From NCBI GenBank assembly GCA_035341015.1, contig DAOQUL010000007.1, positions 27,599-91,598 on the forward strand: DNA of 64,000 bases. Reading direction: 5' to 3'. This DNA comes from Anaerolineales bacterium (GTDB lineage: Bacteria > Chloroflexota > Anaerolineae > Anaerolineales > UBA4823). Below the pieces are notes generated by a model, which was not told the origin of the DNA, did no database searches, and saw only the letters and a list, made by a program, of their open reading frames with translations. Both the position numbers and the translations under genes were made by a program. This document shows, one piece after another, positions 44,022 to 64,000 of this stretch; position 1 is the first letter of the stretch, and each line of letters starts with the position of its first letter.

Positions 44022-44030
44022 TGATAGAAT
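44022..44030 (+). promoter_or_regulatory. extended -10 (TGaTAGAAT) heading the glycan locus
   Basis: TG at 44022-44023 and TAGAAT at 44025-44030. About 100 nt of leader precede the ATG at 44139, including a weak A/U-rich hairpin (44092-44116) followed by ttt. Confidence 0.35.
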
Positions 44031-44138
44031 GCTCATGTTGTTGTGAAATAACCGCGAAACGAATACTTCTGTATAGCTTTTCGGAGAGGTGAGAAAACCC
44101 ACGAGAAGGTTTTTCTTTAACCTCAACCAGGAGAAAAA

Positions 44139-44376
44139 CATGAGCGACCACCGGATCATTCCCGGCACCTCCGTGCCAGGCAGCGACCTGCCTGAAACAC
44201 GCTTCCTCACCCCTCGCCAGGTCGCGATGATCGATGAAGCCCTCAGCTCGCTGGGCGATTTTGGCGAGCTGCGCCTGATGGTCGAAAAGGGCCGCCTGCG
44301 CTTTTTGGTGACCCATCAAAGCTTTGACGCCCTGAAATGGCAGCCGGGCGCTATCAGCGGAAGTAAAGCCAAATAG
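44139..44376 (+). CDS. small YezD/DUF2292-like protein
   Basis: 78 aa. IDEALSSLGDFGELRLMVEKGRLRFLV resembles the YezD pattern. AGGAG RBS 6 nt upstream of the ATG at 44139. Confidence 0.45.
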
Positions 44377-44384
44377 GATTCATC

Positions 44385-44897
44385 ATGCCCTTGCAGTGGT
44401 ACGCGCTGCGCAGTAAACCCCGTAAAGAGAACGTGCTCTGGCGTCAAGCCCAAGAGCATGGCTTTGAAGTCTTTTACCCCCGCCTGCGCGTCAACCCGGT
44501 CAACCCTCGTTCCCAAAAGATCAAGCCTTACTTCCCCGGCTACATGTTCGTGCGCGCCGATGTCGAATCTGCCGGCCTTTCCACCTTCCAATGGATGCCG
44601 CATTCCACTGGCCTGGTCTGTTTTGGCGGCGAACCCTCCGTGGTGCCCGAGAACCTCATCCACGCCATCCGCCGCCGGGTCGAAGAGATTGCCCAGGCCG
44701 GGGGCGAGGTGTTCGACGGCTTGAAGCCCGGCGATGTCATCCAGATCAGTTACGGCCCCTTCGAGGGCTACGAAGCAATTTTTGATGCCCGCCTGCCCGG
44801 CAGCGCCCGGGTGCGCGTCTTGTTACAGTTGTTGAGCGAGCGGCGCGTGCCGCTCGAGCTGGATGTCTCGCACATCCAGCAGAAAAAGCGTCCCTGA
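44385..44897 (+). CDS. NusG-paralog transcription antiterminator (RfaH/UpxY/LoaP-like)
   Basis: NGN start WYALRSKPRKE...YFPGYMFV and a KOW-like GDVIQISYGPFEGYEAIF. Positioned at the head of a polysaccharide locus. Confidence 0.8.
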   Translation: MPLQWYALRSKPRKENVLWRQAQEHGFEVFYPRLRVNPVNPRSQKIKPYFPGYMFVRADVESAGLSTFQWMPHSTGLVCFGGEPSVVPENLIHAIRRRVEEIAQAGGEVFDGLKPGDVIQISYGPFEGYEAIFDARLPGSARVRVLLQLLSERRVPLELDVSHIQQKKRP

Positions 44898-45008
44898 TTT
44901 GGCACGGCGAGTGTGAATTTTGGGGCGCGACATAGTTGTTCCTCCTGTCCGATGGCTTGATCCTGTCGGAAGGGCGGAGCACACCCGCTTTCCGAAAGTA
45001 GCCCCTCG

Positions 45009-46193
45009 TTGGATATCCCCATTGCCCAGCGGTCAGCCCCGCACATCTTAAGCAGCCTGTGCCAGGCATTGTTGGCCCGGGCCGGCAGCCCCATCCCGCC
45101 CCTTTGCCCCAAAGACTGGGCTGCCGCCGTGCACCTGGCCCAGGCTGAGCGCGTGGCCCCCCTCCTGTACTGGTCTTGCCAGCAGGCCGGCTGGCCCGCA
45201 GAGTTCCCCGCCGATGCCCGCCAGGAGCTGACCCGGCAGTATTACGCCACCGCCGCCCGCAATGCCCTGCTCTTCCAAGAGCTGGAGCGCATCCTGGCCG
45301 CCTTCTCAGAGACCGCCATCCCCGTCATCGTGCTCAAAGGCGCCGCCCTCGCCACCACCCTTTACCCCAGCATCGGCCTGCGCCCCATGGCTGACCTGGA
45401 CCTGCTGGTCCCACAGGCGGATATGGAAAGGGCGCTGCAGATCGCCAGAGAGCGGCTCGGTTACCGGGAGCCTCGCATGGACGAAGCCCCGCACTTGAAC
45501 CGCCTGGTGGATTATCACGTCCACCTGGTGAGCGGGGCAGCGCAGCCCCTGGTATTGGAACTGCACTGGAACCTGGTCGCCAGCCACGCAAGCTGGTACG
45601 CCGCCCCGGTGGAGTGGTTCTGGCAGCACAGCCAGCCCCTGCCCGCCGCCCCCCAGGCCCGCATGCTGGCCCCCGAGGCCCAACTGCTCTACCTCGCCGC
45701 CCACGCCGTCCTCCAGCACGGCGCCAGCGAGACCCGCCTGCTGTGGATCTACGACATCCACGCCCTGGCCGGCCAGCCCGGCCTGGATTGGGATGGCTTG
45801 CTGGAGCAGGCGCGGGCCTTGCGTTGGTCGGCCGTGCTCCTGCAAGCCTTGAAGCAGGCCCAAGCTTGCTTCGCCACGCCCCTGCCAGGTGGCCTGCTGG
45901 AGCGCCTGGAGGCCCAATCCGAAGCCCGCCTGGCGCGCGTGGTGGCCCTCAAGACCAAATTCCCCCCCGTGCGCCTGCTGTATAACTGGTACACCCTCGC
46001 CGCCCTCAATGGGCCCGCCCGCCTGCGCTTTATCGGCGCGCTGCTCTTCCCCAGCCAGGCTTATATCGCCTGGCGCTACCGCCCGCACCCCGCCTGGACC
46101 TGGCCCCTCTATTACCCCTACCGCTGGGTCATCATGATTTGGGAAAGCCTGCTCACCCTGGGCCAGGGCCTGAAACGCCTCATTACCTCATGA
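45009..46193 (+). CDS. NTP_transf_5-type uncharacterised nucleotidyltransferase-family protein
   Basis: MADLDLLV and LELHWNL motifs. Uncertain TTG start. Its stop overlaps the next ATG (ATGA). Confidence 0.65.
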   Translation: MDIPIAQRSAPHILSSLCQALLARAGSPIPPLCPKDWAAAVHLAQAERVAPLLYWSCQQAGWPAEFPADARQELTRQYYATAARNALLFQELERILAAFSETAIPVIVLKGAALATTLYPSIGLRPMADLDLLVPQADMERALQIARERLGYREPRMDEAPHLNRLVDYHVHLVSGAAQPLVLELHWNLVASHASWYAAPVEWFWQHSQPLPAAPQARMLAPEAQLLYLAAHAVLQHGASETRLLWIYDIHALAGQPGLDWDGLLEQARALRWSAVLLQALKQAQACFATPLPGGLLERLEAQSEARLARVVALKTKFPPVRLLYNWYTLAALNGPARLRFIGALLFPSQAYIAWRYRPHPAWTWPLYYPYRWVIMIWESLLTLGQGLKRLITS

Positions 46194-48043
46194 AACGACT
46201 GATCTGGCTCGAATGGGCCCTGCTCCTGGCTGCCCTGGCCGCCTTCACCATCACCGAGCAGTACCGGCCTTACGTCACGGTCGGGTTGGGGTTGCTGGCG
46301 GCCTCCTTTGGGCTGCGCTGGCTGCGCACTGGCAAATTTGTCCCCCGCTCTGGTCTTGAGCTTTCGGCCATCCTGTTCATCGCCAGCGCCGCCCTCGCCA
46401 CCTGGATCGCCGTGGACCGGCCCACCGCCATGCTGCAAATGGCCCGCATCCTGGCCGCCGCGGCCCTGTTCTACGCCATCGTCAGCCTCGAACGGGCCTG
46501 GCTGCCCTGGCTGGCCGCCGGCCTTGTGGCTGCTGCCGCCTTCCTGGCCCTCTATTGGCCCCTCCAGCATGACTTTGCCGCCGAGACGGCCAAGTTCGCT
46601 TTCATTACCAATCTCGGCCTGTGGCTCAACGCCCATTTCCCCGCCCTCCCCGGCCCATCCATCCATGCCAACGTGGCGGCGGGGACCCTGGCCCTGGCGC
46701 TGCCCTTTGACCTGGCCCTGGCCTGGCAGGCCTGGCAGGCGGGGCGCAAACCCCTGGCCCTGCTGGCCGCCGCTGCCGGCCTGCTCATCGCCGCCGGCCT
46801 GCTAATGACCAGCAGCCGCGGCGCCTGGGTGGGGCTGGCGGGTATGCTGGGATTAGCGCTGATGGCCTGGCTGCAGCGGCGGCGTTTCGCAACTTCGAAG
46901 CGCCAGGCTTTCTTCTGGGGGCTGTCGGCTATCGCCGGGTTGGGCCTGGCGGCTGCCCTGGCCGCCACCGGCTGGCTGGAGCGCCTGCTCGGCCAACTGC
47001 CTGACCCCACCGGCAGCATGACCGGCCGGACGCACCTGTGGCTCCAGGGCCTGCCCCTGATCCGCGATTACCTCTTCACCGGCAGCGGCCTGATGGGCTT
47101 CCGCATCTTGTTTGGCATTTACGGCCTGCTCATCCATTCCCCCTACCAGGATCATTTGCACAACACCTACCTGGAAGTCTGGCTCGAGCAGGGGCTGCTG
47201 GGCTTCATTGGCTTTGCCCTGGGCGCGCTGGTGATTGCCGGGTGGGCCTGGAAAGTCCTCGCCCGCCGCCAGATTTCTATTTGGGGCTGGGCCGGGTTGG
47301 CCGCCCTGGCCGTGGCCGGGCTGCACGGCATCTTCGACGTGGTCTTTTACGTGACGCGCACCTTGCCCCTCATCGGCCTGGTCGGCGGCTTTGCCTGGTG
47401 GCTGCTGGAGCAGGGGCAGGGCCAGCCGGAGGCAAAGCCTACCTTGCGCACCGTCAAGTCTTCTTCGACTGTATGCCTCCTTAAGCTCGCCGCTGCCGGC
47501 GCCCTCCTGCTCCTGGCGCTCATCTTCCACCGCCCTCTGCTCTCCGCCTTCTACGCTAACCTGGGCGCCCTCTCCCAAACCCGCACTGAGATGACCGCCC
47601 TCGGGGTGGATAACTTCGACAACCCCACCTTAGACGAGATCCGCCAACGCAGCGATCTGGGCCAGGCCGAAGCCTATTTCCACCAGGCCCTGCGCTGGAA
47701 CCCGGCCAACCTCACCGCCCTCCAGCGCCTCTCCGCCATCGCCCTCAGCCGGGGGCAGCCTGACCAGGCCCTGGCCTGGATGCAGACTGCCTGGGAGGCC
47801 GGCAGCCGGGAGGAGATCACCCGCCTGCTCCTCGGCGATGCCCTGGCCGCCCTCGGGCAGACCCAATCTGCCGCCGAGACCGTGCGCGGCCTCACCTGGG
47901 CTGAGGGCCGCCTGATGTTCCAGGCCTGGTACCGCTACGAGCGCCAGGGTGATCTTGACCGCGCCGCACTGGCCTGGCAGGCCGTCCTGGCCCTCAACCC
48001 CCACAACCAGCAGGCCCTGGATTGGCTGGCGGCCCATCCTTAG
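46190..48043 (+). CDS. Wzy_C/O-antigen-ligase-family polytopic membrane protein with C-terminal TPR domain
   Basis: About 10-12 TM helices, an MTSSRGAW motif, a large loop, and C-terminal TPR-like repeats (YFHQALRWNPANLTALQRL...). Confidence 0.75.
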   Translation: MKRLIWLEWALLLAALAAFTITEQYRPYVTVGLGLLAASFGLRWLRTGKFVPRSGLELSAILFIASAALATWIAVDRPTAMLQMARILAAAALFYAIVSLERAWLPWLAAGLVAAAAFLALYWPLQHDFAAETAKFAFITNLGLWLNAHFPALPGPSIHANVAAGTLALALPFDLALAWQAWQAGRKPLALLAAAAGLLIAAGLLMTSSRGAWVGLAGMLGLALMAWLQRRRFATSKRQAFFWGLSAIAGLGLAAALAATGWLERLLGQLPDPTGSMTGRTHLWLQGLPLIRDYLFTGSGLMGFRILFGIYGLLIHSPYQDHLHNTYLEVWLEQGLLGFIGFALGALVIAGWAWKVLARRQISIWGWAGLAALAVAGLHGIFDVVFYVTRTLPLIGLVGGFAWWLLEQGQGQPEAKPTLRTVKSSSTVCLLKLAAAGALLLLALIFHRPLLSAFYANLGALSQTRTEMTALGVDNFDNPTLDEIRQRSDLGQAEAYFHQALRWNPANLTALQRLSAIALSRGQPDQALAWMQTAWEAGSREEITRLLLGDALAALGQTQSAAETVRGLTWAEGRLMFQAWYRYERQGDLDRAALAWQAVLALNPHNQQALDWLAAHP

Positions 48044-48076
48044 AACTTATCGCTGTCTCAAACCGATCATTCCTCC

Positions 48077-50899
48077 ATGAAACCCCTCCCTCGTCTTCTT
48101 CTATTCCTCCTTCTCTTTTCCTTTGCCGCGCCATTGGCCCTTGGCCCCGCCCGCGCCCAGTCCTCCGATCCCTTCTGGAGCGAGCCCGCCAACCTCTCCC
48201 AATCCGGCGCCGCCTCCCAGCCCCGCCTGCTGGCCGCCCCCGATGGCCGCCTGCAGGCCTTCTGGTGGGACCGCTTCGACGGCCTGACCAGCGCCCTCTA
48301 CGACGGCAGCGCCTGGGGCGAGCCCTTCGCCGCCCCCCTGCCTGGCACCCAGTCTGCCCCCCAACTCCTGCTCGCCCTCTCCTCTCCCTCTCCCCTCTCC
48401 ACTCCAGCGGAGTGGAGAGGGGCCGGGGGTGAGGTGGGCTCCGGGGGTGAGGTGGGTGAGGTGGGTGATGTAGGCACCGTCCACGCCCTATGGCTGGATG
48501 GCGGCGCCTTGCTGCACAGCACCACCCCCTTCGGCCAGGCCGCCTGGAGCCGCCCCGCCAACCTGGCTGACCCCGCCATGGCTTACCAGGCCGCCCTGGC
48601 CCCCGATGGCGCTCTCTCGGTCGCCTACCTGCGCACCCTCCAGGACGAGACCGCCGCCGCCGGCCTCTATTACCTGCGCTTGCCCGCCGGCCAACTCTCC
48701 TGGACCGCCGCCGTCCCCGTCCACACCTCGCGCTACTACCGCCTGCTCACCGCCGAAACCGCCTACCTCTCCCTGCTCGACCTCTCCTCCCCCCTCTCCA
48801 CCACAACGGAGGGGGTAGGGGCCGGGGGTGAGGTAGGGGCCGCGGTCTTCCTGGCCTGGCACGAGCCCCAGACCGGCGCCGCCCTCTACGCTGCCTCGGC
48901 CGCCAGCGCTGCCTGGAGCGCCCCCCAGCCTCTCAGCGATGACCAGGCCCTGGCCCCCGCCCGCCCCCGCCTGGCCGCCCAGCCGGATGGCGCCCCCCTG
49001 CTCATCTGGCAGGATGCCTCCCGCAGCGCCTGCACCCTGTACCAGCAGGCCTGGTCCCCCACCAGCGGGTCGGATGGCGATTGGGCCGCCCCTGCCCCCA
49101 TCCTGGATGGACTGGCCGCCTGCCCCGCCGCCGGACAGTTCTACAATCAAGGTGGCTTGCTTTACTGGCTCTGGAGCTCGGCCGGTGGCGGCCTGGCCCT
49201 GGCCGCCTGGGACCCTCAGACCAAAGGCTGGTCTGAGGCGCAGACTCTATCCGCCAGCCTCTCCGCCGCCCCCACGGCCGCCGAGAGCCCCCTCTCCGAT
49301 CCCCTCCTGGCCTTCGACGCCTCCTCCGCCGGCCTGCTCTTGCTCGGCCAGGACGAGCAGGGGGATATCTGGTTTGCCCGCAGCTCCGCCGCCGCCCTGC
49401 AATTGGTCTACCCAACCCCCTCCCCCTGGAGCCTTTCCCAGCCCCTCTCAAGCGCCGGCCTGGCCGCCGCCGACCCCGCCCTGGCCCTTGACGACCAGAA
49501 CCGCATCCACGTGGTGTGGAGCGAGGGCCAGCCTGGCGCCCCCGCCTCCCAGATCCTCTACGCCCGCTCCGCCGATGGTCAACCCGGCGCCGACGGGCTG
49601 CCCGTCGCCATCTCCTTCTCCCGCCCTGCTGCCGTGGTCAGCGCGGCGGCCGGTGAAGTGGCCCGCCAGCCCGCCCTGCTGCTGCAAGAGGGCTGGCTGC
49701 ACCTGGCCTGGAGCGGCGGGAGCGAGGGCGAGATCCTTTACAGCCGTGCCGCCCTCGACCAGGCCGCCTCGGCCGCTGCCTGGTCGCCCGCCCAATACAT
49801 TTCCAACGGCCTGCCGGGGGCCTGGCCCCTGCTGGCCGCCGACCAATCTGGCGGGCTCTACCTGCTTTACGTGCTGCCTGCCAACGAAGGGCGCGGTGTG
49901 TACCTGGCCCGCTCGCAAGATGGCGGCAGCACCTGGACGGCCCCTGAGATGGTCTTCGATGCCGGCGCCGCCGGCTGGCGCATGGTGGGGCCGACCGCCC
50001 TGGCCCTGACCCCCTCCCTGCGCCTGGCCGGGCTGACCGAGCTGCACGTGGTCATCACCCGCCAGGCCTTGCCCGGCACCCTGCCCGCCCAGGGCCTGGT
50101 GTACACCCGCGCCGCCCTCTCTGCCGCCTCCCTCCAACCCCTGGCCTGGAGCGAGCCCTTCGAGGCCGCGGCGGCCGCCTACAGTGCCCCGCGCCTGGCC
50201 GCCTCGGCTGGCCGCCTGCACCTGTTCTCGGTGGATGCGGCGGGGGCCTTGTGGCAGCGCAGCCTGCCCCTCGACGCCCCCTTTGAGGACGTGGCCGCCT
50301 GGGGCACCCCGCAGCGGGTGAGTGGCTGGGTGAACCTCAGCGGCTGGGTGAACCTCAGCGGCTGGGATAACCTGACCGGCGGCCTGCCTTACGGCCTGGC
50401 TGCCGCCGGCGGCCTGCTGGATGGCAACCTGTACCTGGCCGGGCCCGCCTACCAGGTTAACACCGACCCGGCCTTCATCCTGCGTTTCAGCGCCTGGCAA
50501 GATGCCCGCTGGACCGCCTCCGAGGCCTACGATCCGATCCATATGCCTGCCGGTGAGGTGCTGGCTGCCGCTGCCGCCGCCCGCCCTGAGGGCGCCCGCC
50601 TGGCCCTGGCCTGGGTCTCTTTGGATGCCGACGGCCTGCCGGCCCTGCGCCTGGCCTGGCGCCCCCTGCCAGAATTCACCCTGCCGCCCCTGCCCACCCC
50701 CCAGCCCACATCCACCCTGCCGCCCCAGCCCACCCTGGCCCCCACGATTGCCCCCAGCCCCACGCCGGACCTGAACCGCACTGCCCCTGCTTCAACCAGC
50801 CTGCCCGACCCGCGCCTGCTGGGCGGCGGCCTGGCGGCCCTGATCGTAGTTGGAGTGATCGTGGTGGTAAGATTGGGCTGGTTCCGCAAGCCGTCTTAA
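48077..50899 (+). CDS. secreted BNR/Asp-box beta-propeller-like surface protein, C-terminally anchored (940 aa)
   Basis: Signal peptide, Asp-box SQDGGSTW, repeated W-S-x-P...h-h-W blade pattern, PTPQPTSTLPPQPT linker, and a TM helix followed by FRKPS at the C-terminus. Confidence 0.7.
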   Translation: MKPLPRLLLFLLLFSFAAPLALGPARAQSSDPFWSEPANLSQSGAASQPRLLAAPDGRLQAFWWDRFDGLTSALYDGSAWGEPFAAPLPGTQSAPQLLLALSSPSPLSTPAEWRGAGGEVGSGGEVGEVGDVGTVHALWLDGGALLHSTTPFGQAAWSRPANLADPAMAYQAALAPDGALSVAYLRTLQDETAAAGLYYLRLPAGQLSWTAAVPVHTSRYYRLLTAETAYLSLLDLSSPLSTTTEGVGAGGEVGAAVFLAWHEPQTGAALYAASAASAAWSAPQPLSDDQALAPARPRLAAQPDGAPLLIWQDASRSACTLYQQAWSPTSGSDGDWAAPAPILDGLAACPAAGQFYNQGGLLYWLWSSAGGGLALAAWDPQTKGWSEAQTLSASLSAAPTAAESPLSDPLLAFDASSAGLLLLGQDEQGDIWFARSSAAALQLVYPTPSPWSLSQPLSSAGLAAADPALALDDQNRIHVVWSEGQPGAPASQILYARSADGQPGADGLPVAISFSRPAAVVSAAAGEVARQPALLLQEGWLHLAWSGGSEGEILYSRAALDQAASAAAWSPAQYISNGLPGAWPLLAADQSGGLYLLYVLPANEGRGVYLARSQDGGSTWTAPEMVFDAGAAGWRMVGPTALALTPSLRLAGLTELHVVITRQALPGTLPAQGLVYTRAALSAASLQPLAWSEPFEAAAAAYSAPRLAASAGRLHLFSVDAAGALWQRSLPLDAPFEDVAAWGTPQRVSGWVNLSGWVNLSGWDNLTGGLPYGLAAAGGLLDGNLYLAGPAYQVNTDPAFILRFSAWQDARWTASEAYDPIHMPAGEVLAAAAAARPEGARLALAWVSLDADGLPALRLAWRPLPEFTLPPLPTPQPTSTLPPQPTLAPTIAPSPTPDLNRTAPASTSLPDPRLLGGGLAALIVVGVIVVVRLGWFRKPS
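48392..48470 (+). repeat. GC-rich palindromic element plus in-frame (GGTGAGGTG)n-type microsatellite inside the BNR gene, copy 1
   Basis: 14-bp perfect stem cccctctccactcc (48392-48405) / ggagtggagagggg (48409-48422), then ccgggggtgaggtggg twice and gtgaggtgg repeats. Translated as PLSTPAEWRGAGGEVGSGGEVGEVGDVG. Confidence 0.8.
48791..48839 (+). repeat. degenerate second copy of the same element inside the BNR gene
   Basis: cccctctccaccacaacggagggggtaggggccgggggtgaggtagggg aligns with copy 1. The stem is imperfect. Translated as PLSTTTEGVGAGGEVG. Confidence 0.7.
50324..50377 (+). repeat. 18-nt coding tandem repeat, about 3 units
   Basis: ggctgggtgaacctcagc twice, then the degenerate unit ggctgggataacctgacc. 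Encodes GWVNLSGWVNLSGWDNLT. Confidence 0.85.
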
Positions 50900-51054
50900 A
50901 AAAGGAACGACTCAAACGACGAGGAACGACTGCGGCGGGGAAGGGCGAAAAACTTTTGGGGCGGGGACTCTATACATAGGATAGCAGAATTTTTGGGCGG
51001 CACAAGAGGAAATTGGACGGATGCAGTCCGCCCCTACAGATTTTATAGGAAACT

Positions 51055-51222
51055 ATGGCAGAAGAACTCTCTACCCAACACCAAGTCATCATCGAGCCCT
51101 CGCGCGGCTGGCTGGACCTGCAGTTGCGCGCCCTGTGGCAGTACCGCGATCTGCTGGGCTTTTTGGTGTGGCGCGCCGTGAAGGTGCGTTATGAATCACA
51201 GCAAAAAGGTTTGGAGGTTTGA
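51055..51222 (+). pseudogene. wzm: 5' stump of a high-GC Wzm-type ABC-2 polysaccharide-export permease gene
   Basis: Hand-translated 55-codon ORF MAEELSTQHQVIIEPSRGWLDLQLRALWQYRDLLGFLVWRAVKVRYESQQKGLEV*. YRDLLGFLVWRAVKVRY aligns with YRELIINWAIRDIRSRY of the intact wzm 100 nt downstream. Similarity and high GC both end near 51190. Confidence 0.65.
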
Positions 51223-51297
51223 GTATGGACCTTGATGTGGCCGGGATGTTAAAGTCAGAATATTTTAGGCGAATTGATAGCTCAAGATTTCAAAACT

Positions 51298-52116
51298 ATG
51301 GATAAACAACTTTCAATAGGTCAAAAGAACACACTTGTACAAAAGGTGAAAATACTTGTCCATTATCGGGAATTAATCATAAATTGGGCCATACGTGATA
51401 TTCGTTCTCGCTATCGCCAGTCTTTTATGGGCATGGGATGGCTATTAATCCAGCCTGTCTTTCAAATAATTATCGTTAGCGTGATTTTTGGCTATTTTAT
51501 CAAAGTGCCCAGTGAGGGAATGCCTTACCCAATTTTTTATTTTGCTGCCATGATGCCTTGGATGCTATTCCAGGGGATGATTTCTAGCGCCGTGCCAAGC
51601 GTGCTTAATAACATGGCTTTGGTTAGTAAAATCTATTTTCCTCGCGAAATTCTTCCTCTGGCTTCTATTCTGGCACGTTTTTTTGATTTTCTGATTTCAT
51701 TGGGTATTTATTTTGTTCTAATGATGGTATATAAGGTTCCATTGCAAATTACGTTGGTTCTAATTCCTGTTTTGCTAATATTACAAACAATTTTAGCCCT
51801 GGGAATAAGTCTCCTGGGCGCTGCCGTTAGCGTCTTTGTCCGGGATATTTCGTTTGCAATCCCTTTAGTGATGCAACTCTGGATGTATGCCACGCCAGTG
51901 ATCTATCCACTCGATCTGGTGCCAGAACAATGGCGTTGGCTTTACCTGCTCAATCCAATGGCGGGTGTTATCGACTCTTACCGGCGGATACTACTGTATG
52001 GCGAATGGCCAGACTTGATTTATCTGGCAAGTGCTGCATTCACATCATTGGTATTATGCCTGTTTGGTTACTGGTATTTTAAGAAACTCGAAATTACTAT
52101 GGCGGATGTACTGTGA
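51298..52116 (+). CDS. wzm: ABC-2 type polysaccharide-export permease
   Basis: Six hydrophobic segments and an N-terminal YRELIINWAIRDIRSRYRQSFMGMGWLLIQP motif. ATG at 51298 (TTG at 51274 also open). Confidence 0.85.
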   Translation: MDKQLSIGQKNTLVQKVKILVHYRELIINWAIRDIRSRYRQSFMGMGWLLIQPVFQIIIVSVIFGYFIKVPSEGMPYPIFYFAAMMPWMLFQGMISSAVPSVLNNMALVSKIYFPREILPLASILARFFDFLISLGIYFVLMMVYKVPLQITLVLIPVLLILQTILALGISLLGAAVSVFVRDISFAIPLVMQLWMYATPVIYPLDLVPEQWRWLYLLNPMAGVIDSYRRILLYGEWPDLIYLASAAFTSLVLCLFGYWYFKKLEITMADVL

Positions 52117-53363
52117 TGAATACCCAGCCCAGTATTGTTTTTGAGAAAGTTTCGAAGCGTTACTACATTGGCAAGCGGCATGTATTTGCCCAGCAATTGT
52201 TGCCTGAATTTATCCAACGCAGACTGGCCCAACGTTCCACTGTTGATGAATTGTGGGCATTGCAAGATGTATCATTAGAAGTTCACCCCGGTGAGGCGCT
52301 TGGGCTAATCGGTTCGAACGGTTCGGGCAAAACTACTACCCTTTCTATCTTGGCAGGCATCACGGCTGTCACACATGGGAGCGTGGCGGTGAGCGGCCGC
52401 GTTGGAGCGCTGATTCAACTCGGTGCAGGTTTCCATCCTGAACTAACTGGGCGCGAAAATATTTACCTCAATGCATCGATCTTGGGTCTGAAACGTGCTG
52501 AAGTCGATCGAATCTATGATGAGATTGTTGAATTTGCTGAACTAGAGAAGTTTATGGATACTCCGGTAAAGCGTTATTCTTCTGGCATGTATGCTCGTCT
52601 GGGATTCAGCGTAGCAATCCATATCAAGCCTGATATCTTGTTGGTAGACGAGGTATTGAGCGTTGGGGATATGAACTTTCAGAGTAAATGTCAACAGCGC
52701 ATGCGCAAGATGATGAGTGACAGGATAGCGGTTGTTTTCGTCTCTCACAATTTGCCTTCTGTTCAAGGCTTATGTGATAGGGTGGTTTGGCTTGATAGAG
52801 GCAAAATACGCGCATCAGGTAAAACCTCTGACGTTGTTGCGCAATACATGGATGCAATGAATGATCGGGCCCTCTCCACGCGCAATTCTGATTATTTTGG
52901 CACCCGCTGGGGTTCTGGAGATGTTACTTTAACAAAAGTTGATTTGATCGATCAAAACAATCAAATAACTAAAAAACTGAACTATCGCGATACAGCAACT
53001 GTCAGAATCGAATATCAGATTAACAAGTCGCTTCCAGGGGTTATATTTCGTCTCTGGATACAAGATGTTACTACAGGTGTAATCGTTACCTCGGCCGATT
53101 CAATCCGCGGTGAGAAGATTGGCGATTTTGGAAAACGAGGTGTGGTTGAATTTATTTTCCCAAATCTTCCCCTGAGACCGAGAAATTATTCTTTGTCGGT
53201 GGTTGCTGTCAGTACAGACTTATTGATACCCTATGATCGCTGGGGAAGTGTAATTACTTTCACTGTGTCTTCCAGCAACATCGAACGCGAAAGTGGCTAT
53301 GTTCATGGACAGCAAGACTTGGTCGAGATTCCCTACCAAGTTAGGACTTACCGATGTGATTGA
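52113..53363 (+). CDS. wzt: polysaccharide-export ABC ATPase with C-terminal glycan-binding (Wzt_C-like) domain
   Basis: Walker A GSNGSGKTT, signature YSSGMYARL, Walker B ILLVDEVLS. A ~165-aa beta-rich C-terminal extension. Overlaps wzm by 4 nt. Confidence 0.85.
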   Translation: MMNTQPSIVFEKVSKRYYIGKRHVFAQQLLPEFIQRRLAQRSTVDELWALQDVSLEVHPGEALGLIGSNGSGKTTTLSILAGITAVTHGSVAVSGRVGALIQLGAGFHPELTGRENIYLNASILGLKRAEVDRIYDEIVEFAELEKFMDTPVKRYSSGMYARLGFSVAIHIKPDILLVDEVLSVGDMNFQSKCQQRMRKMMSDRIAVVFVSHNLPSVQGLCDRVVWLDRGKIRASGKTSDVVAQYMDAMNDRALSTRNSDYFGTRWGSGDVTLTKVDLIDQNNQITKKLNYRDTATVRIEYQINKSLPGVIFRLWIQDVTTGVIVTSADSIRGEKIGDFGKRGVVEFIFPNLPLRPRNYSLSVVAVSTDLLIPYDRWGSVITFTVSSSNIERESGYVHGQQDLVEIPYQVRTYRCD

Positions 53364-53455
53364 GCAGCTAAAAAAGACAAGTATGATCGGATGGAAATAT
53401 TAGTGTTAGCGATAACAACTTTCCTTCCCACTATAATTTTTGAGGTAATTTTGTG

Positions 53456-54385
53456 ATGGATGAATTATTTGACAACGTAACGTACTACGGAATTAACAAA
53501 ATTATTCGGAATTATTGTCATTTTCCATCATCTTTACCTCTACCCGTATCAATTCAACATGGCTGGAGTTTTGTGCCATCCCTTCATGATGCTAGGGTAG
53601 GTGCATCTGAAAACTGGTATTGGTCTGATGCCATGGCAAAGGCTTACAAAGCTAAGTATCCTGAAATAAAAACACGGGCTGTAGGAGCACCATTCTTATA
53701 TTTTTTAAAAGTTATCTCTTATGAAGTTATGCCTGAAGAAACTAGAAAAGGATCGATTGTTTTTCCTTCGCACTCTTCTAGTTTAGCAAGAATATCTTGC
53801 GATTACAATCAGTATGCTGAAATGCTCTCTTATTTACCAGATATATATAAACCGGTCACGATTTGTATGTATCATATCGACTTTGAAAGAGGAATGGGAT
53901 CACCATTTGCCTCCAGAGGTTTTAAAATTGTAAGCAATGGTGATAGTTTGTATGAAGAAAATTTTCTTCTTAATTTCGTGAACAACTCGAGAGATAAGCT
54001 TTATGCTTTTTCCAACCAAATGACTTCGGCATTGCTTTTTGCATCTGCTATGGACCTTAAAGCATTTTATTACGGACCGCCTTTTCAGTTTGATAGTCAG
54101 GACCCCAATTTTACCAATATAGCAGACTATGATCAACGCTATAAGCAGTGGGAGATAAATAGTTCGAATTATTTCCAATTCCCTGACGTTAACATTTTGG
54201 ATCAACAGAAATTCTCTAGAGAAACATTAGGCGAAGAAAATCTTCTTTCGCCAATTGAAATGTTTTTCCTTTTATCAAAATTGGCTGTTAAAAAACAATA
54301 CCTCAGACAGGTATTACCCGATGATCACCTTGCCAAGAAAGTGTTCCGATTAATTAAACGAGCACTGATAAAAATCCTTGGGTAG
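53456..54385 (+). CDS. hypothetical protein (309 aa), low-GC island
   Basis: Intact ORF with a GAGG RBS. No motif recognised. Sits between wzt and the first glycosyltransferase. Confidence 0.55.
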   Translation: MDELFDNVTYYGINKIIRNYCHFPSSLPLPVSIQHGWSFVPSLHDARVGASENWYWSDAMAKAYKAKYPEIKTRAVGAPFLYFLKVISYEVMPEETRKGSIVFPSHSSSLARISCDYNQYAEMLSYLPDIYKPVTICMYHIDFERGMGSPFASRGFKIVSNGDSLYEENFLLNFVNNSRDKLYAFSNQMTSALLFASAMDLKAFYYGPPFQFDSQDPNFTNIADYDQRYKQWEINSSNYFQFPDVNILDQQKFSRETLGEENLLSPIEMFFLLSKLAVKKQYLRQVLPDDHLAKKVFRLIKRALIKILG

Positions 54386-54523: not shown

Positions 54524-55885
54524 ATGAAAATATTGCAAATAAATACATCTGATATATCTGGCGGTGCAGAGAGAGTTGCCTGGAATCTTCACAACGCTTA
54601 TCAATTGCATGAACATTGTTCTTGGTTGGTTGTGGGTAATAAGCGTTCTGCCGATCCTCTGGTATTTGAAATCTCGCGTTCACATCCACCAAAAATTTGG
54701 TCGCGTATATGTTGGGCTGTACATGGCAGTTTAGAGTATTATGAAAATCGCTTTAGCCTGGCACGTTGGCTGAGGTACTGCTTGAAAGTATTAGCTCAAG
54801 GGGTCCCAGGCATGGAGCGTGAGGTGGGTTGTGAAGATTTTTTTTATCCGGGTAGTCATAGGTTGTTAGCGCAGTTACCCGAAAAGCCCGATTTGATCCA
54901 TGCCCACAATTTACATGGCGGGTATTTCGACTTGCGTTACCTGGCCCATTTGAGCCAGCGCATTCCCACAATGGTTACACTGCATGATCAGTGGCTGCTA
55001 ACCGGCCACTGTGCATACTCGCTTGGTTGCACGCGTTGGAAAGTGGGGTGCGGGCGCTGCCCTGATTTATCTTTATATCCTTCATTAAATCGTGATGGCA
55101 CCGCACAAAACTGGCGGCGAAAGCAAGCGATATACCGTCGGAGTAAGTTGTATGTAGCTACCCCCAGCCAATGGTTGATGGATTGTGTGCAGCAATCCAT
55201 GTTAAATCCGGTAGAAAGCCGGGTAATCCCGAACGGGGTGGATCAGGCGATCTTTCATCCTGGAGATAAAGTGGCGGCCCGCCGCCGGCTAAACTTGCCG
55301 GAGAATGCAGCCATCTTGCTCAGCCTTGCAGCCGGTGGGCGGAATAACCCTTATAAAGATTATGGCACGATACTTCAGGCGTTTGCCAGTCTTCCTAGAG
55401 TAGATCATCTCAAATATCCCCTGGTTTTGCTTCAGGTTGGCGGAGATGAACAGCGGATGGAGGATTTGGGCGACCGCATGATTTATCACTGGCCTTATCA
55501 AAAAGAAGCCCAGCAGTTAGCGCTTATCTACAGCGCATCCGATTTGTTTTTACATGCCGCACGAGCAGATACTTTCCCAACAACAATTTTAGAGGCTTTT
55601 TCCTGTGGCATTCCAGTTGTTGCAACCGCGGTTGGCGGTATCCCTGAGCAGGTAAAAGATGGACATAATGGATTTCTTGTTTCGCCAGGTAATGTTCAAG
55701 AAATGAGCAAGAAAATCGATCAATTGCTCACTGTCTCTGATTTGATGCTGCAAATGGGACAGTTTGCTTTGCGTGATGCTAGAGAGCGATTTGATCTTCG
55801 TCAGCAGGTGAAAGAATATTTAAGCTGGTATCAGGAGATTATTGCTCAACGGCAAGCCTCACAGGCTATTGGAAGAAGAATGTGA
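54524..55885 (+). CDS. family-4 (GT-B) glycosyltransferase
   Basis: C-terminal EAFSCGIPVVATAVGGIPEQV (E-x7-E type) motif and an N-terminal SGGAERV region. Confidence 0.85.
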   Translation: MKILQINTSDISGGAERVAWNLHNAYQLHEHCSWLVVGNKRSADPLVFEISRSHPPKIWSRICWAVHGSLEYYENRFSLARWLRYCLKVLAQGVPGMEREVGCEDFFYPGSHRLLAQLPEKPDLIHAHNLHGGYFDLRYLAHLSQRIPTMVTLHDQWLLTGHCAYSLGCTRWKVGCGRCPDLSLYPSLNRDGTAQNWRRKQAIYRRSKLYVATPSQWLMDCVQQSMLNPVESRVIPNGVDQAIFHPGDKVAARRRLNLPENAAILLSLAAGGRNNPYKDYGTILQAFASLPRVDHLKYPLVLLQVGGDEQRMEDLGDRMIYHWPYQKEAQQLALIYSASDLFLHAARADTFPTTILEAFSCGIPVVATAVGGIPEQVKDGHNGFLVSPGNVQEMSKKIDQLLTVSDLMLQMGQFALRDARERFDLRQQVKEYLSWYQEIIAQRQASQAIGRRM

Positions 55886-57315
55886 TGAAATCATTTGATA
55901 TGAGGCTGCGTGTGATTATTGGCGTGTGTTCTATTGTGGGAATAATTTTTGGCGCTTTTCCTGCAAAAAGCATGCTGGCTTTTGGCTGGTCGGCTCCTCT
56001 TTCTTTGTCGGGTTCAAATCCGGCCTGGTTTCCAAAGATGGTCGCAGATAAGGCGGGATATGTTCACGTAATGTGGGGAGAGTGGGTTGGCTCGGGCTTG
56101 CCTTCTGTGCAAGCGGCTAATACGATATTTTACCGGTACTGGGATGGATTCAATTGGTCCGAGCCTATTGACACTTTTGCTTCCTCTACTACCATTTATC
56201 TTGATGATCTCGAGGTAACTGAAGATGGTCAGCTTGTTGCGGCGTGGGGAGATGATTTATATTTTTACTTAAGCTATGTATCGATTGGTGATGCAGCGCG
56301 TGTAACTGCTTGGAAAACCACAAAATATTTACCAGATACCTCGGTAGTCAATGCTAAAATTGCAATTTCTCCAGTGAACAATCGTATTTATCTTTCTTAT
56401 GGGGCTCTTAATAAAATTTTTCTGACCTCAACTTTGGATGGATTGACTTGGGAACCGGTTCAAACGATTTGGACTTCGACAAATTCTAGTATAGCAGTAA
56501 CCAACGGGGATATTATGGTTAACGAAGATGGGCGCGTGAAGCTCTCTTTCACAGAAAATAGCGTAGGAAAGTCTTGGGGGGGAGCGGCAATTTGGTATAC
56601 AGATTTTGATCCGTTAACTGGTAATACACAGATGCGCGAGATTTTGCGGTTAGACAGCCCATCAAGCCCTACGCTGGGATGGCCCAGGCTGGCATCTAAT
56701 CAGATGGGCCAGGAGATGATGTTTTGGAATAATGGTGTTGGCAGCTTAACGGGACGTTTTTTCCAAATATCCGATGATGATGGGCAGAATTGGGGAACGG
56801 TGCGAAATGCCTTCGTAGGCGAATTGAGCGGACAAACAGGCTTTCCTGCCCTGGCGGCGGATAGCTTGGGGCGTTTTCATCTTATCACTTCTGCGCAAAC
56901 CCCTTCTGGCATTACTCAATTGTGTTATGCGGTTTGGGATGGAAGAGAGTGGTCCAGTTATACCCCGCTTTGGCCTGAGCTGCGCGGCGAACATCCGGCT
57001 CTGGTGGTAACAGGGGGTAATCTTTTGCATGTGGTCTGGAATTCTTATGCAGATGCCAGTATTCGGTATAGCTCCTTGTTGTTAGATACCCCATATTTAC
57101 CCCCTGGTTCTTATCAATCGCCTTCCGTTCTGGAAATTACATCAACCCCACCGCCAATGACAGCATCGCCTACTCCAACGCCGTTGCTTCTACTTTCAGA
57201 TTCGGCCCCAGTAATCTTGGGGGCCGAAGCGCAAATGGCGATTTTGTTGTGGGGAGGTTTGCCAGTCGTTGTTCTGATTGGTATTTTGATGATTGCCTAC
57301 CTCAGAAAAAGATAA
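55885..57315 (+). CDS. BNR/Asp-box beta-propeller-like surface protein, C-terminally anchored (476 aa)
   Basis: N-terminal hydrophobic signal; Asp-boxes STLDGLTW and SDDDGQNW. The N-terminal WSAPLSLSGS...YVHVMWGEW aligns with WSEPANLSQS...LQAFWWDR of the 940-aa protein. TPPPMTASPTPTP linker, TM helix and LRKR tail. Confidence 0.7.
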   Translation: MKSFDMRLRVIIGVCSIVGIIFGAFPAKSMLAFGWSAPLSLSGSNPAWFPKMVADKAGYVHVMWGEWVGSGLPSVQAANTIFYRYWDGFNWSEPIDTFASSTTIYLDDLEVTEDGQLVAAWGDDLYFYLSYVSIGDAARVTAWKTTKYLPDTSVVNAKIAISPVNNRIYLSYGALNKIFLTSTLDGLTWEPVQTIWTSTNSSIAVTNGDIMVNEDGRVKLSFTENSVGKSWGGAAIWYTDFDPLTGNTQMREILRLDSPSSPTLGWPRLASNQMGQEMMFWNNGVGSLTGRFFQISDDDGQNWGTVRNAFVGELSGQTGFPALAADSLGRFHLITSAQTPSGITQLCYAVWDGREWSSYTPLWPELRGEHPALVVTGGNLLHVVWNSYADASIRYSSLLLDTPYLPPGSYQSPSVLEITSTPPPMTASPTPTPLLLLSDSAPVILGAEAQMAILLWGGLPVVVLIGILMIAYLRKR

Positions 57316-58466
57316 TGTCAACCTTGCCGCTGGTTACAGTAATTACCCCCTCCTATCAACAGGTTGAATATATCGAGCGTACGATTCAGAGTGTTTTGGG
57401 GCAGGAGTATCCCAACTTAGAATATTGGGTTATCGATGGTGGGTCGACAGATGGAACTGTTGATATCCTAAAACGTTATGATGGGCGACTCAATTGGGTT
57501 TCTGAGGCCGATCGAGGGCAATCAGATGCTCTGAATAAAGGTTTTAGACGAGCCAGGGGAGCAATCCTTGGTTGGTTAAATGCAGATGACACCTATAATC
57601 CGGAGGCTATTCGGCAGGCTGTTGCTGCGATGGAAGAATATCCTGATGTTGGCATGGTGTATAGTCACTGTAACTTCATTGATATTTGTGACAATGTTGT
57701 GTTTCGCCAGGTAGCTCCAGCATTTAGCCTTGCGCGGGAGGTTCTTGATCATAATCTCCCTCAGCCAACAGCTTTTTATCGTTCCGATGTTCTTAGAACG
57801 GTGGGTTATCTTAATCCTGAATTGCATTTTGTAATGGATTGGGATCTTTTTTTGCGAATCGGTGTGCAATTCCCGATTCAGCAAGTTGATGCAGTATGGG
57901 CAAACTTTCGTGAGGTAAACGGTACGAAAACATGCTCGCACCCAGAAAAATTTTGGGATGAGATGGTTGGGGTGTTCGAGAGTTTCTTCTCTATCTCCGA
58001 ATTGCCCGCGGAAGTGCGAGGTTTGCGGGAGCAGGCTTTAGCGCGAGTTCATTGGGCAGCTGGTGTGATATATCAGTTGGATTCTGATTTTACAACCAGA
58101 CTCCTGGGTCAACAAAGTTGTCAAAAGGCACTAGATCTCTACCCTTTGTTGGAACAAGATTATCAGTTTGCATCTGCTCAGATTGTGGATTGGGCTGTGC
58201 GTAGATTGCCGTTAGCTGAACGCAAGGCGTTTGTGGATACTATTTTTTCGTCTTTATCTATAACTGATTCTGTTCGCAGGAGTATGGTACGGCAGATTTC
58301 TGGAAACGTATTTGCCAGCAGCGTGCTCATGCAGGGAGACTATCGGTATAATTTACCTGTTTTTTCTTATCGCCAGACTCTTTGCCTGGTTTTTCAAGCG
58401 GTTCGACAAGATTTTCGTTGGATATTTAACCGGGGCATTTTATCTCGATTATTGCGTTGTTCATAG
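57315..58466 (+). CDS. family-2 glycosyltransferase
   Basis: VTVITPSYQQ, VIDGGSTDGT and NADD motifs. The ATG overlaps the upstream stop (TAATG). Confidence 0.85.
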   Translation: MSTLPLVTVITPSYQQVEYIERTIQSVLGQEYPNLEYWVIDGGSTDGTVDILKRYDGRLNWVSEADRGQSDALNKGFRRARGAILGWLNADDTYNPEAIRQAVAAMEEYPDVGMVYSHCNFIDICDNVVFRQVAPAFSLAREVLDHNLPQPTAFYRSDVLRTVGYLNPELHFVMDWDLFLRIGVQFPIQQVDAVWANFREVNGTKTCSHPEKFWDEMVGVFESFFSISELPAEVRGLREQALARVHWAAGVIYQLDSDFTTRLLGQQSCQKALDLYPLLEQDYQFASAQIVDWAVRRLPLAERKAFVDTIFSSLSITDSVRRSMVRQISGNVFASSVLMQGDYRYNLPVFSYRQTLCLVFQAVRQDFRWIFNRGILSRLLRCS

Positions 58467-58495
58467 TCCTCAGTGGTTCAATAATGTATTTAGAG

Positions 58496-59701: not shown

Positions 59702-59706
59702 TAAAA

Positions 59707-60648: not shown

Positions 60649-60698
60649 ATACTAGACGTTTAACCTTGTGTTTTTCTTGTGAATGATCTGAAAACATA

Positions 60699-61661: not shown

Positions 61662-61666
61662 GGAAT

Positions 61667-62656: not shown

Positions 62657-62668
62657 GATTAACATTGC

Positions 62669-63577: not shown

Positions 63578-63999
63578 TGATGTCTGTGAACGGTAAGGCC
63601 ATGCGCATAGGGATTGATATTCGAGCAATTTCACACCCCCAGCCTGGAGGATTTAAAAGTTATACTTCTGGATTGGTGAGTGGTTTGGCTTCGGTGGATC
63701 ATGAAGATCAGTTTGTTCTCTACGCAGATCGTTCTTGCCAACTGCCATCTATAGCAGATCGCCTTAATTTTTCAATCGTTACGCTAAAGTCGCCAGAACA
63801 TTTAATGGGAATGGGGGCGATGGTTCGTGAGCAGGTATTTTTACCTCGGGCGGCTTGGCAAGAGGATTTTGATATATTTCATTTTCCTTGTGCAACCGGT
63901 CCGCTCTTGTTTCCTCGTACAAAGGTGGTTACGATCCATGACGCCATTGAGTTTATCGAAAAGCCACCATTGTTTGTGAATCGTAGTATCAGGCGGTGG
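63577..63999 (+). CDS. family-4 glycosyltransferase, N-terminal part (3' end beyond window)
   Basis: Hand-translated open frame MMSVNGKAMRIGIDIRAIS...FDIFHFPCATGP...VVTIHDAIEF, a typical GT4 N-domain. The ATG overlaps the upstream TGA. Alternative start at 63601. Confidence 0.7.
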   Translation, partial: MMSVNGKAMRIGIDIRAISHPQPGGFKSYTSGLVSGLASVDHEDQFVLYADRSCQLPSIADRLNFSIVTLKSPEHLMGMGAMVREQVFLPRAAWQEDFDIFHFPCATGPLLFPRTKVVTIHDAIEFIEKPPLFVNRSIRRW

Positions 64000-64000
64000 T

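Follow-up and report, generated by a model that had tools for sequence, protein, structure and literature searches.

A NusG paralog and two conserved candidate control signals at the head of a long glycan operon in a lipid-A-less Anaerolineaceae bacterium

Introduction

Among specialised NusG paralogs, three lineages, those of RfaH, UpxY and LoaP, are to our knowledge the only ones understood together with their loading sites, and a dedicated NusG paralog with ops-like control has not been described for surface-layer (S-layer) glycosylation (slg) clusters. Here we analyse a locus of an Anaerolineales bacterium (Chloroflexota) in which such a paralog heads a long glycan operon, preceded by a terminator-like leader hairpin and a small open reading frame (ORF) and followed by a 17-nt element related to ops and opsX. 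The locus lies in a stretch of 64,000 nt, called the window here (C7:27599-91598 of the 4.44-Mb assembly GCA_035341015.1, 57.8% GC; genome 93% complete), and all coordinates are positions in that window unless a contig is named. It adds a Chloroflexota lineage to those in which specialised NusG paralogs occur together with candidate loading sites; our literature search found no paper describing a Chloroflexota NusG paralog.

The Escherichia coli factor RfaH acts at ops, given as GGCGGTAGCGTG for ops12 (PMC5995543), with the non-template-strand hairpin 5'-GCGGTAGC (PMC11685472, PMC5995543), and the Bacteroides capsule operons carry opsX, the site of UpxY, with the non-template hairpin 5'-YGCGNAGCR (Saba et al. 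2024, PMC11685472). In Bacillus velezensis a small conserved leader RNA hairpin and an intrinsic terminator precede a long biosynthetic operon that is under the NusG paralog LoaP (PMC12691694). For the glycan-transfer half of the locus the closest described systems are the S-layer glycosylation clusters of Geobacillus stearothermophilus (WsaB, with wzm/wzt) and Paenibacillus alvei (WsfB), in the review of which a Wzy_C domain with a C-terminal TPR is the architecture given for WsfB and PglL (PMC2943079), and the ligase WaaL, for which R215, R288 and H338 of the E. coli enzyme, with equivalents in PglL, are described (PMC3643930).

Results and discussion

The NusG paralog and the element that follows it

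We lean towards reading the locus as a long operon for a surface glycan other than lipopolysaccharide (LPS), governed by a two-layer transcription-elongation cassette, in which a Wzy_C enzyme would transfer the glycan to an acceptor other than lipid A, most likely the Pro/Thr stalk of a propeller protein. Its regulatory half is best explained as RfaH/UpxY-like processive antitermination with a newly recognised site and a hairpin/small-protein gate, and protein O-glycosylation by the operon is plausible. The gene string set out in the preliminary description is present, co-oriented on the + strand and in the order stated, on which the ORF list, Pfam and NCBIfam agree. The control region comprises:

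44022..44030, + strand: promoter-like extended -10, TGaTAGAAT, read off the sequence
44077..44117, + strand: leader hairpin with U-tract, terminator-like, 41 nt, from a covariance model
44140..44376, + strand: small ORF, 78 aa, faintly DUF2292/YezD-like
44385..44897, + strand: NusG paralog, NGN and KOW, from Pfam and the RfaH alignment
44964..44980, + strand: ops/opsX-like element TGTCGGAAGGGCGGAGC, from conservation among loci

The paralog, which had been proposed at the outset, is genuine. Its NGN domain matches PF02357 above the Pfam cut-off (E=3e-14, residues 4-96), and its KOW domain is seen in the HMMER alignment to E. coli RfaH, which covers RfaH residues 25-148 with the KOW included, and in the NusG alignment, which runs through residue 179 and includes PGDxVxIxxGPFxGxxAIF; the Pfam KOW model itself reported no match on it. 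RfaH models and structures are its best matches, and every curated model falls short of its cut-off: the RfaH equivalogs TIGR01955 (78.6 vs 144.5 bits) and NF006534 (62.5 vs 124 bits), UpxY NF033644 (52.6 vs 100 bits), the NusG model (41.8 vs 135.7 bits) and, as the weakest match, LoaP NF033641 (26.3 vs 125 bits). By these scores the paralog appears RfaH-like yet outside every curated subfamily, and in the HMMER alignment the RfaH pocket residues do not look conserved. The genome holds exactly two NusG-family genes, the other being a housekeeping copy that adjoins secE.

Homologs of the paralog occur in 86 of the 101 family genomes, and our search returned 119 relatives, all of them Anaerolineales/Anaerolineaceae metagenome-assembled genomes (MAGs) plus Bellilinea; most relatives are fragmented MAGs, which makes absences soft. 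At about 50 loci the paralog occupies a fixed site after pgk-tpiA and a 245-aa membrane protein (g245), and the genes 3' of it are hypervariable: a block of low-molecular-weight (LMW) phosphatase, sigma factor and DegV genes follows directly in 17 loci, a GAF histidine kinase in nine, and variable glycan genes (Gmd, NTP_transf_5, NeuABC-like, dehydrogenases, wzm/wzt and glycosyltransferases) in the remainder.

A conserved element had been anticipated both in the leader (44031-44138) and in the spacer behind the paralog (44898-45008), and both contain one: the hairpin at 44077-44117, to which we return below, and TGTCGGAAGGGCGGAGC at 44964-44980. When the spacer is aligned with that of a locus whose proteins are 47-74% identical, one identical 18-nt block remains, and a large fraction of the related loci carry the 17-mer 56-270 nt past the paralog stop codon; in loci without a paralog in cis, the element sits 3' of the small ORF instead. 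Among 45 distinct instances, TGTCG plus GGCGGAGC is essentially invariant, would-be synonymous positions included, GCGGAGC is identical in all 45, the element's two variable triplets alter the encoded amino acid, and the reading frame that opens at its NTG varies from 8 to more than 33 codons. Fixed synonymous positions, non-synonymous variable codons and a varying frame length together argue for a constraint on the nucleic acid. Our literature search found no paper mentioning the 13-mer GGAAGGGCGGAGC.

The element is concentrated in the family. At two mismatches or fewer it is found in 91 of 101 family genomes, in one to seven copies of which many are exact (exact 17-mers occur in dozens of genomes), against about 0.7 per genome for a reversed-pattern control; outside the family, 12 of 33 genomes of the order carry a copy with at most one mismatch, and elsewhere in the phylum its rate is near that of the control. 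Its presence tracks the genes that follow the paralog. Within 600 nt it is found at none of the 17 LMW phosphatase loci and none of the nine GAF histidine kinase loci (0/26 for these housekeeping-type genes), and at 22 of 45 loci where other, mostly glycan, genes follow. In at least 24 genomes an element lies 1.5-11 kb upstream of a large propeller gene on the same strand, the distance in our genome being 3.1 kb.

The signal in the spacer lies in the conserved 17-mer rather than in the overall fold, since the fold of 44895-45012 is not more stable than shuffles (z=-1.4). A local structure is nevertheless predicted at the element itself: in the window copy its 5' half can pair over 8 bp with an upstream complement (44946-44953) into a hairpin, and stems of at least 6 bp with a loop of at most 12 nt and the 5' half as 3' arm are found in 21 of 45 instances, compared with 6.8 +/- 2.4 in shuffles. 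Some stem pairs co-vary, e.g. TCGACAA with TTGTCGA. The same test with a 45-nt window was uninformative (6.3 vs 5.5 bp), the enrichment being seen once the loop was limited to 12 nt. The GCG-G-AGC core itself is a candidate non-template-strand hairpin, judged by its likeness to ops and opsX.

In four genomes (G022, G025, G012 and G072) divergent second paralogs with 40-45% identity lie directly 5' of variant elements (TGTCGGT..., with T at position 7), which are followed by propeller operons, and the primary paralogs of the same genomes have the exact element 3' of them. Although the sample is small, this hints that divergent paralogs and variant elements are cognate pairs. The variant paralog/element sites are:

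G022:C8:346237-346790
G025:C12:82146-82701
G012:C14:100403-101000
G072:C1:927040-927632

In a different explanation the 17-mer would initiate translation or encode a leader peptide (NTG-TCG-GAA-GGG-CGG-AGC, 'MSEGRS') or would be bound by another factor, and it would lie near the paralog only because of a shared operon structure. Such a role would fit with a possible start codon (ATG, GTG, TTG or CTG) opening 44 of 45 instances, with some ten instances being in frame with the first cargo gene, with the persistence of the element in genus g54, where the NusG paralog is undetected, and with the copy that precedes ssb. It accords poorly with invariant synonymous positions beside two variable codons that change the amino acid, and a frame of 8 to more than 33 codons means that there is no conserved peptide. 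Furthermore, the core fits the GCG..AGC non-template hairpin of ops and opsX (PMC11685472), an excess of hairpins lies just 5' of the element, the position that they take at known ops-type pauses, and variant elements go with divergent paralogs. We therefore consider a translational signal unlikely, and prefer a loading site for the paralog.

In comparison with RfaH, the likeness lies in the best model and structure matches, in the combination of NGN and KOW, and in a single factor with a few short sites that head long glycan operons and, possibly, operons of mobile elements. The element has the form GGCGGAGC(G/A)(C/T)G and does not match GGCGGTAGnnTG, the canonical ops of RfaH targets, to which it is related but not identical: GGCGGAGCGYG differs from ops by one substitution and by the loss of T6, the flipped-out base that RfaH reads. 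Apart from this and from its score below the RfaH cut-offs (78.6 vs 144.5 bits), our system differs in that the factor is encoded in cis, just upstream of its site, and in that the host is a lipid-A-less member of the Chloroflexota. With UpxY and UpxZ it shares a polysaccharide operon that opens with genes for a NusG paralog and a small accessory protein, the GCG-N-AGC core (YGCGNAGCR in opsX, gGCGGAGCR here), a nascent-RNA hairpin just upstream of the site, here as predicted stems, and the hints of cognate paralog/site variants inside one genome. It departs from them in scoring far under the UpxY cut-off (52.6 vs 100 bits), in having the site downstream rather than upstream of the paralog gene, and in usually having one paralog per genome for one to seven sites as opposed to one per operon. 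Unlike in the Bacteroides UpxY system, no promoter inversions were seen here. A GCG..AGC core common to the candidate site, ops and opsX supports an ancient shared mode of boarding RNA polymerase. With one to seven sites per genome the regulon is easily mapped, and the natural paralog/site variants inside single genomes are a useful property.

A leader hairpin and a small protein precede the paralog

The second conserved signal, the leader hairpin, starts about 45 nt past the promoter-like TGaTAGAAT (44022-44030) and ends 22 nt before the Shine-Dalgarno of the small ORF; TGnTAnAAT is likewise found upstream of the hairpin in related loci. It is built of a 5-7-bp stem, a near-invariant apical part with the consensus AGAGGTGAAAAATCCCAC and a run of 5-8 T, and in the window its apical loop reads AGAGGUGAAAAAUCCCA. 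A covariance model (R1) scores the window hairpin at 54.6 bits and detects the hairpin in 36 of 101 family genomes, hardly any of which have more than one copy; a second copy in our genome, as expected of a regulon in trans, was not found with this model. Across 29 distinct sequences pairing in the outer helix is 93%, and compensatory changes are seen at three of five pairs; the apical part never varies and so neither supports nor contradicts the structure. A simple terminator/promoter scan gave chance-level matches only and missed the hairpin because of its large loop. A cmscan of 43900-45100 against Rfam at E<=10 returned only a chance Mu-gpT-DE match, placing neither element in a curated RNA family, and both conserved control signals, the hairpin and the ops-like element, are previously undescribed.

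The hairpin stands upstream of the small ORF in every locus that has the small ORF. Conversely, a homolog of the small ORF lies directly 3' of it in 19 of 20 newly fetched sites, and in only 12 of these 20 is the NusG paralog next after the two. The small ORF has an upstream GGAG Shine-Dalgarno and a stop codon 8 nt 5' of the ATG of the paralog, and its product contains a highly conserved core of about 50 residues (QVxMIDEALxSLGEYGEVRLIVEKGRLRFLVTQKSFDALKWQPG). Its description as YezD-like finds only faint support: DUF2292 (PF10055) gives weak Pfam matches in five of 19 homologs (best E=0.045), and the window protein has no Pfam match. A search of the PDB found no relative of it. Since an invariant loop is tightly paired with an invariant small protein, we suggest that they form a cis-acting RNA and its binding protein.

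Read on its own, the hairpin could be a plain intrinsic terminator of the upstream gene (43224-43961), with the small ORF an unrelated hypothetical one, and indeed it is followed by a U-tract and placed 116 nt past the stop codon of that gene. However, its apical 18 nt are near-invariant across genera, which is unlike ordinary terminators, it sits 3' of the conserved promoter-like -10, it stays with the small ORF at loci that have another upstream gene (L105-L110), and most relatives with the same upstream gene are without it. This makes a plain terminator very improbable, and we retain the reading of a regulated hairpin linked to the small protein. The arrangement resembles that of LoaP in its small conserved leader RNA hairpin and intrinsic terminator ahead of a long biosynthetic operon under a NusG paralog (PMC12691694). 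It differs in that the conserved hairpin here is itself terminator-like and tracks the small ORF more closely than the NusG paralog, and in that LoaP is the weakest model match (26 bits vs a cut-off of 125). In contrast to UpxZ, of which no homolog was found at the locus, the small partner is DUF2292-like, is encoded before the paralog and is tied to its own hairpin. The hairpin and small protein form an extra, unexplained layer in front of the operon.

Two variations on this arrangement occur among relatives. A second small DUF2292-like ORF follows the first by about 1.8 kb in the same operon at L026 (11775-11936) and L086 (2422-2583). At two loci, L094/L109 (position 236) and L084/L107 (position 241), an ops-like element is found not 3' of the paralog but about 65 nt ahead of the leader hairpin, so that the order of the modules is not fixed; there a loaded polymerase would meet the terminator-like hairpin.

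The host lineage has no lipid A

We know of little work on the cell envelope of the Anaerolineae. The host belongs to the lipid-A-less Anaerolineaceae (Chloroflexota), as the preliminary description had suspected: LpxC is found in none of the 61 family genomes sampled and not in the host's own 93%-complete genome, whereas four control genomes were positive. The gene content, with a Wzy_C domain, a WaaL-like fold, wzm/wzt and glycosyltransferases, would also fit an ordinary O-antigen locus of LPS with a WaaL ligase, but the absence of LpxC from this lineage means that the locus is not one and that the Wzy_C enzyme cannot be a classical WaaL. We hence give the O-antigen explanation practically no weight and take the product to be another surface glycan. 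Elsewhere the genome encodes three LCP-family proteins, and it has six Wzy_C genes in total.

A Wzy_C-TPR enzyme is linked to anchored propeller proteins

The element is followed by three genes that carry the glycan-transfer half of our reading (domains from Pfam and NCBIfam, here and below):

45009..46193, + strand: NTP_transf_5, uncharacterised nucleotidyltransferase, E=1e-56
46190..48043, + strand: Wzy_C with C-terminal TPR, PF04932 E=2.5e-20
48077..50899, + strand: large BNR/Asp-box propeller protein, 940 aa, from Asp-boxes and an AlphaFold model

The true ATG of the Wzy_C-TPR gene overlaps the stop codon of the NTP_transf_5 gene, and the two are translationally coupled. The Wzy_C-TPR family comprises more than 100 clusters of about 620 aa whose source names are Chloroflexota. 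An AlphaFold model (pLDDT 91, pTM 0.90, from a 36-sequence alignment) shows 12 transmembrane (TM) helices, a disordered cytoplasmic linker (residues 411-424), a thirteenth helix (425-445) and a TPR domain of about 170 residues that extends to the C-terminus. Together with the positive-inside pattern, the model places this domain outside, on the same side as the catalytic loop; TPRs are protein-protein interaction modules. A PDB sequence search with the membrane part gave no match, and a profile search was swamped by TPR proteins. By fold, WaaL of Cupriavidus metallidurans (PDB 7TPG) is the only PDB match at E<1e-3 (Foldseek E=1e-4, 455 aligned columns, 20% identity), and like WaaL the enzyme has conserved Arg/His residues in an outside loop: R210, R280 and H322/H324 are invariant or near-invariant and, mapped by position only, recall R215, R288 and H338 of E. 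coli WaaL. It differs from WaaL in its extra thirteenth TM helix and external TPR domain, and in that the lipid A-core acceptor is absent from this lineage. PglL_A (PF15864) is absent from its Pfam matches at E<=0.01. The enzyme is a candidate glycan ligase or O-oligosaccharyltransferase.

The 940-aa protein has a signal peptide, Asp-boxes (SxDxGxTW), a Pro/Thr linker at about residues 865-912 and a C-terminal TM helix; none of the sorting signals looked for (PEP-CTERM, GlyGly-CTERM, LPXTG and others) reached its cut-off, and we take the C-terminus as a plain TM anchor. The Pfam match to BNR_2 is weak (1e-4). Its AlphaFold model (pLDDT 77) is all-beta, with tandem beta-propellers, and the fold matches are generic, to propeller lectins, GH74 and sialidases at 9-16% identity. 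The 477-aa ORF further downstream encodes a second, smaller member of this propeller family, which likewise has the signal peptide, a Pro/Thr linker and the C-terminal anchor. A homolog search yielded only seven proteins because of the low-complexity composition, and was supplemented with proteins from the related loci. All members have in common the signal peptide, an N-terminal WSxPxNLSxSG, Asp-boxes, the Pro/Thr linker and a PLILGGGLAA-TM-basic tail; the large family is present in 51 of 101 family genomes, usually with the small paralog of about 500 aa nearby. Two Gly/Glu/Val-rich inserts of the window protein (residues 104-129 and 239-253; 48386-48463 and 48791-48835) are disordered loops with pLDDT below 50 and are missing in most homologs.

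Wzy_C-TPR and the large propeller, often with the small propeller and wzm/wzt, recur together in L101, L102, L103 and L105, and the NTP_transf_5 gene adjoins that of the Wzy_C-TPR enzyme in L101 and L103 and shares an operon with it in L102. Three of these loci read as follows:

L101 (56% identity): hairpin, small ORF, paralog, element, NTP_transf_5, Wzy_C-TPR, 869-aa propeller, 545-aa propeller, wzm
L102: NTP_transf_5, several other genes, Wzy_C-TPR, epimerase, 916-aa propeller
L105: hairpin, small ORF, element, acetyltransferase, GT2, Wzy_C-TPR, epimerase, sulfotransferase, 922-aa propeller, wzm, wzt, 516-aa propeller; paralog not in cis

As the linkage of Wzy_C-TPR and propeller recurs in several distant genomes at 28-56% identity, the enzyme and the Pro/Thr-linker propeller are likely functional partners. 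Half of the family genomes have a WaaL-fold enzyme with an external TPR domain beside anchored, Pro/Thr-stalked propellers.

Which acceptor the enzyme would use is where the evidence divides. The proposal of an slg-like protein O-glycosylation system finds support in the absence of lipid A, in a Wzy_C-plus-TPR architecture shared with WsfB and PglL, and in the recurrent propeller linkage; it is not borne out by PglL_A, which is unmatched, or by the fold search, in which the only solved relative is WaaL. By architecture, not by sequence, the locus agrees with the WsaB/WsfB type in its Wzy_C with TPR, its wzm/wzt export and its cell without LPS. As here, the S-layer clusters of G. stearothermophilus and P. 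alvei belong to cells of monoderm type that lack LPS, and their glycans are assembled in an ABC-transporter-dependent manner; the transferase is of the Wzy_C family, has a TPR either at its own C-terminus (WsfB) or on an adjacent protein (WsaA/WsaB), and is encoded near a large surface protein (PMC2943079). They differ in their acceptors, the candidates here being C-terminally membrane-anchored beta-propellers and not known S-layer proteins.

A serious rival keeps the same regulation and lets the Wzy_C-TPR enzyme ligate its polymer to something other than a protein, be it a glycolipid anchor in the membrane, peptidoglycan or a different polymer of the wall, with the propellers as lectin- or hydrolase-like partners in assembly or remodelling. 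WaaL, the only solved fold relative, is a lipid-acceptor ligase, the best fold matches of the propeller are carbohydrate-binding propeller lectins, GH74 and sialidases, PglL_A is unmatched, and LCP enzymes show that polymers are attached to the wall in this host. Set against these are the absence of lipid A, the extracytoplasmic TPR domain fused to the enzyme as in WsfB and PglL (PMC2943079), the retention of a Pro/Thr stalk beside the membrane anchor in both propeller paralogs, and the typical position of O-oligosaccharyltransferase genes next to those of their targets (PMC3643930). A lipid or wall acceptor with lectin-like propellers is possible, though we find it doubtful; the slg-like idea is favoured because of the external TPR domain on a Wzy_C enzyme, the conserved adjacency to Pro/Thr-stalk proteins and the common placement of O-oligosaccharyltransferase genes beside targets. 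The enzyme/propeller pair offers a concrete candidate for the O-glycosylation of surface proteins in a phylum that lacks lipid A, and Wzy_C-TPR may be a new class of O-oligosaccharyltransferase, of interest for glycoengineering.

A proposed sequence of events and the points against it

In the scheme that we propose, transcription would start at the extended -10 promoter near 44025, and the polymerase would then meet the hairpin and U-tract at 44077-44117, probably a regulated intrinsic terminator tied to the small DUF2292-like protein. Read-through would allow the small protein and the NusG paralog to be expressed. The paralog would probably load on RNA polymerase paused at the ops/opsX-like element (44964-44980) with its short hairpin ahead, as RfaH does at ops and UpxY at opsX, and the loaded polymerase would be resistant to termination through the cargo genes. 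In the cytoplasm the GT2 and GT4 enzymes could assemble the glycan on a polyprenol carrier, Wzm/Wzt would export it, and the WaaL-fold Wzy_C protein with its extracytoplasmic TPR domain would move it to an acceptor that is not lipid A, most likely the Pro/Thr stalk of the co-conserved, C-terminally anchored propellers, in a manner comparable to S-layer protein O-glycosylation by WsaB or WsfB.

Several observations weigh against this scheme. On the regulatory side, about half of the paralog loci followed by glycan genes have no element within 600 nt; in genus g54 (G094, 96% complete, and G080), where hairpin, small ORF and three to four elements are present, the housekeeping NusG is the only one detectable, and in several other genomes with exact elements the paralog was not detected; the second element of our own genome precedes ssb and not glycan genes; the element starts with NTG, sometimes in frame with the first cargo gene, which makes a role in translation start possible; and the covariation of the leader hairpin is modest, its apical part being invariant. 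On the glycan side, the wzm/wzt/glycosyltransferase part is a foreign cassette and a recent replacement, the PglL_A motif of PglL-type O-oligosaccharyltransferases is not matched, the best fold matches to lectins, GH74 and sialidases could make the propeller a glycan-binding or -processing partner rather than a substrate, and polymers could be joined to the cell wall by the three LCP ligases that the genome encodes elsewhere. Finally, many relatives show no linkage between the regulatory cassette and the propeller system.

Two further observations concern the elements just mentioned. The g54 genomes G094 and G080 (loci L108 and L110) also carry a propeller operon. The copy before ssb (C6:98634-98650) is the only other copy of the 17-mer in our genome; it lies 45 nt before ssb, beside an HTH/excisionase-like ORF and near a contig end, and may represent a mobile element borrowing the host's antitermination site.

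A more far-reaching version, which we put forward quite tentatively and think unlikely to be right in all its parts, is an undescribed three-part system of the Anaerolineales. In it, the small DUF2292-like protein would read the invariant apical loop of its own hairpin-terminator and so gate the operon; the RfaH/UpxY-like paralog would load at an opsX-type site (hairpin plus GCGGAGC) 3' of its own gene and at the same site at one to seven other operon heads per genome, with divergent paralogs acting on variant sites; and the main cargo would be an O-oligosaccharyltransferase with a WaaL fold and a TPR, and with the Pro/Thr stalks on two anchored propellers as its substrates, giving these filamentous, lipid-A-less bacteria a glycoprotein surface layer.

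Composition and remaining genes of the operon

The cargo continues with wzm, wzt (with Wzt_C), one GT4 gene and six GT2 genes within the window, interspersed with other ORFs:

51055..51222, + strand: truncated native wzm, 55 codons, with a Wzm-type N-terminus, at a compositional breakpoint
51274..52116, + strand: wzm, low GC, ABC transporter
52113..53363, + strand: wzt, low GC, ABC transporter with C-terminal glycan-binding domain Wzt_C
53453..54385, + strand: 310-aa ORF, no family assignment
54524..55885, + strand: GT4 glycosyltransferase, domain match
55882..57315, + strand: small BNR propeller paralog, 477 aa, kin of the large propeller
57249..63577, + strand: six GT2 glycosyltransferases, one with a TPR repeat, domain matches
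63442..64000, + strand: GT4 gene, 5' part, continuing past the window

The GC content is a mosaic, 63-72% at 44-50 kb and 40-46% at 52-64 kb, with a drop from 57-72% to 40-46% at about 51.2 kb that coincides with the wzm stump (51055-51222), whose N-terminus matches the Wzm of L105. As the stump lies exactly where the GC content collapses, the wzm/wzt/glycosyltransferase half is a foreign, low-GC cassette, recently swapped in for the native continuation of the operon. The span first given to the locus, 44022-51222, stops short of its end: co-oriented genes (a GT4 gene, a second Wzy_C gene and two GT4-like genes past the window) reach the contig end at about 68.4 kb in window coordinates, and the operon is at least 24 kb long. 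The second Wzy_C protein (64758-66173; C7:92356-93771) has 471 aa, a high-GC gene and no TPR, and lies in the same operon past the low-GC cassette. The 310-aa ORF at 53453..54385 gave no matches in Pfam and NCBIfam family searches; standing directly 3' of wzt with its Wzt_C domain, it could supply the chain termination or capping that is otherwise missing. Upstream of the locus, a Hanks-type Ser/Thr kinase with TPR repeats (40555-42417) is inserted between pgk and tpiA, an insertion present in only about five of 80 related loci.

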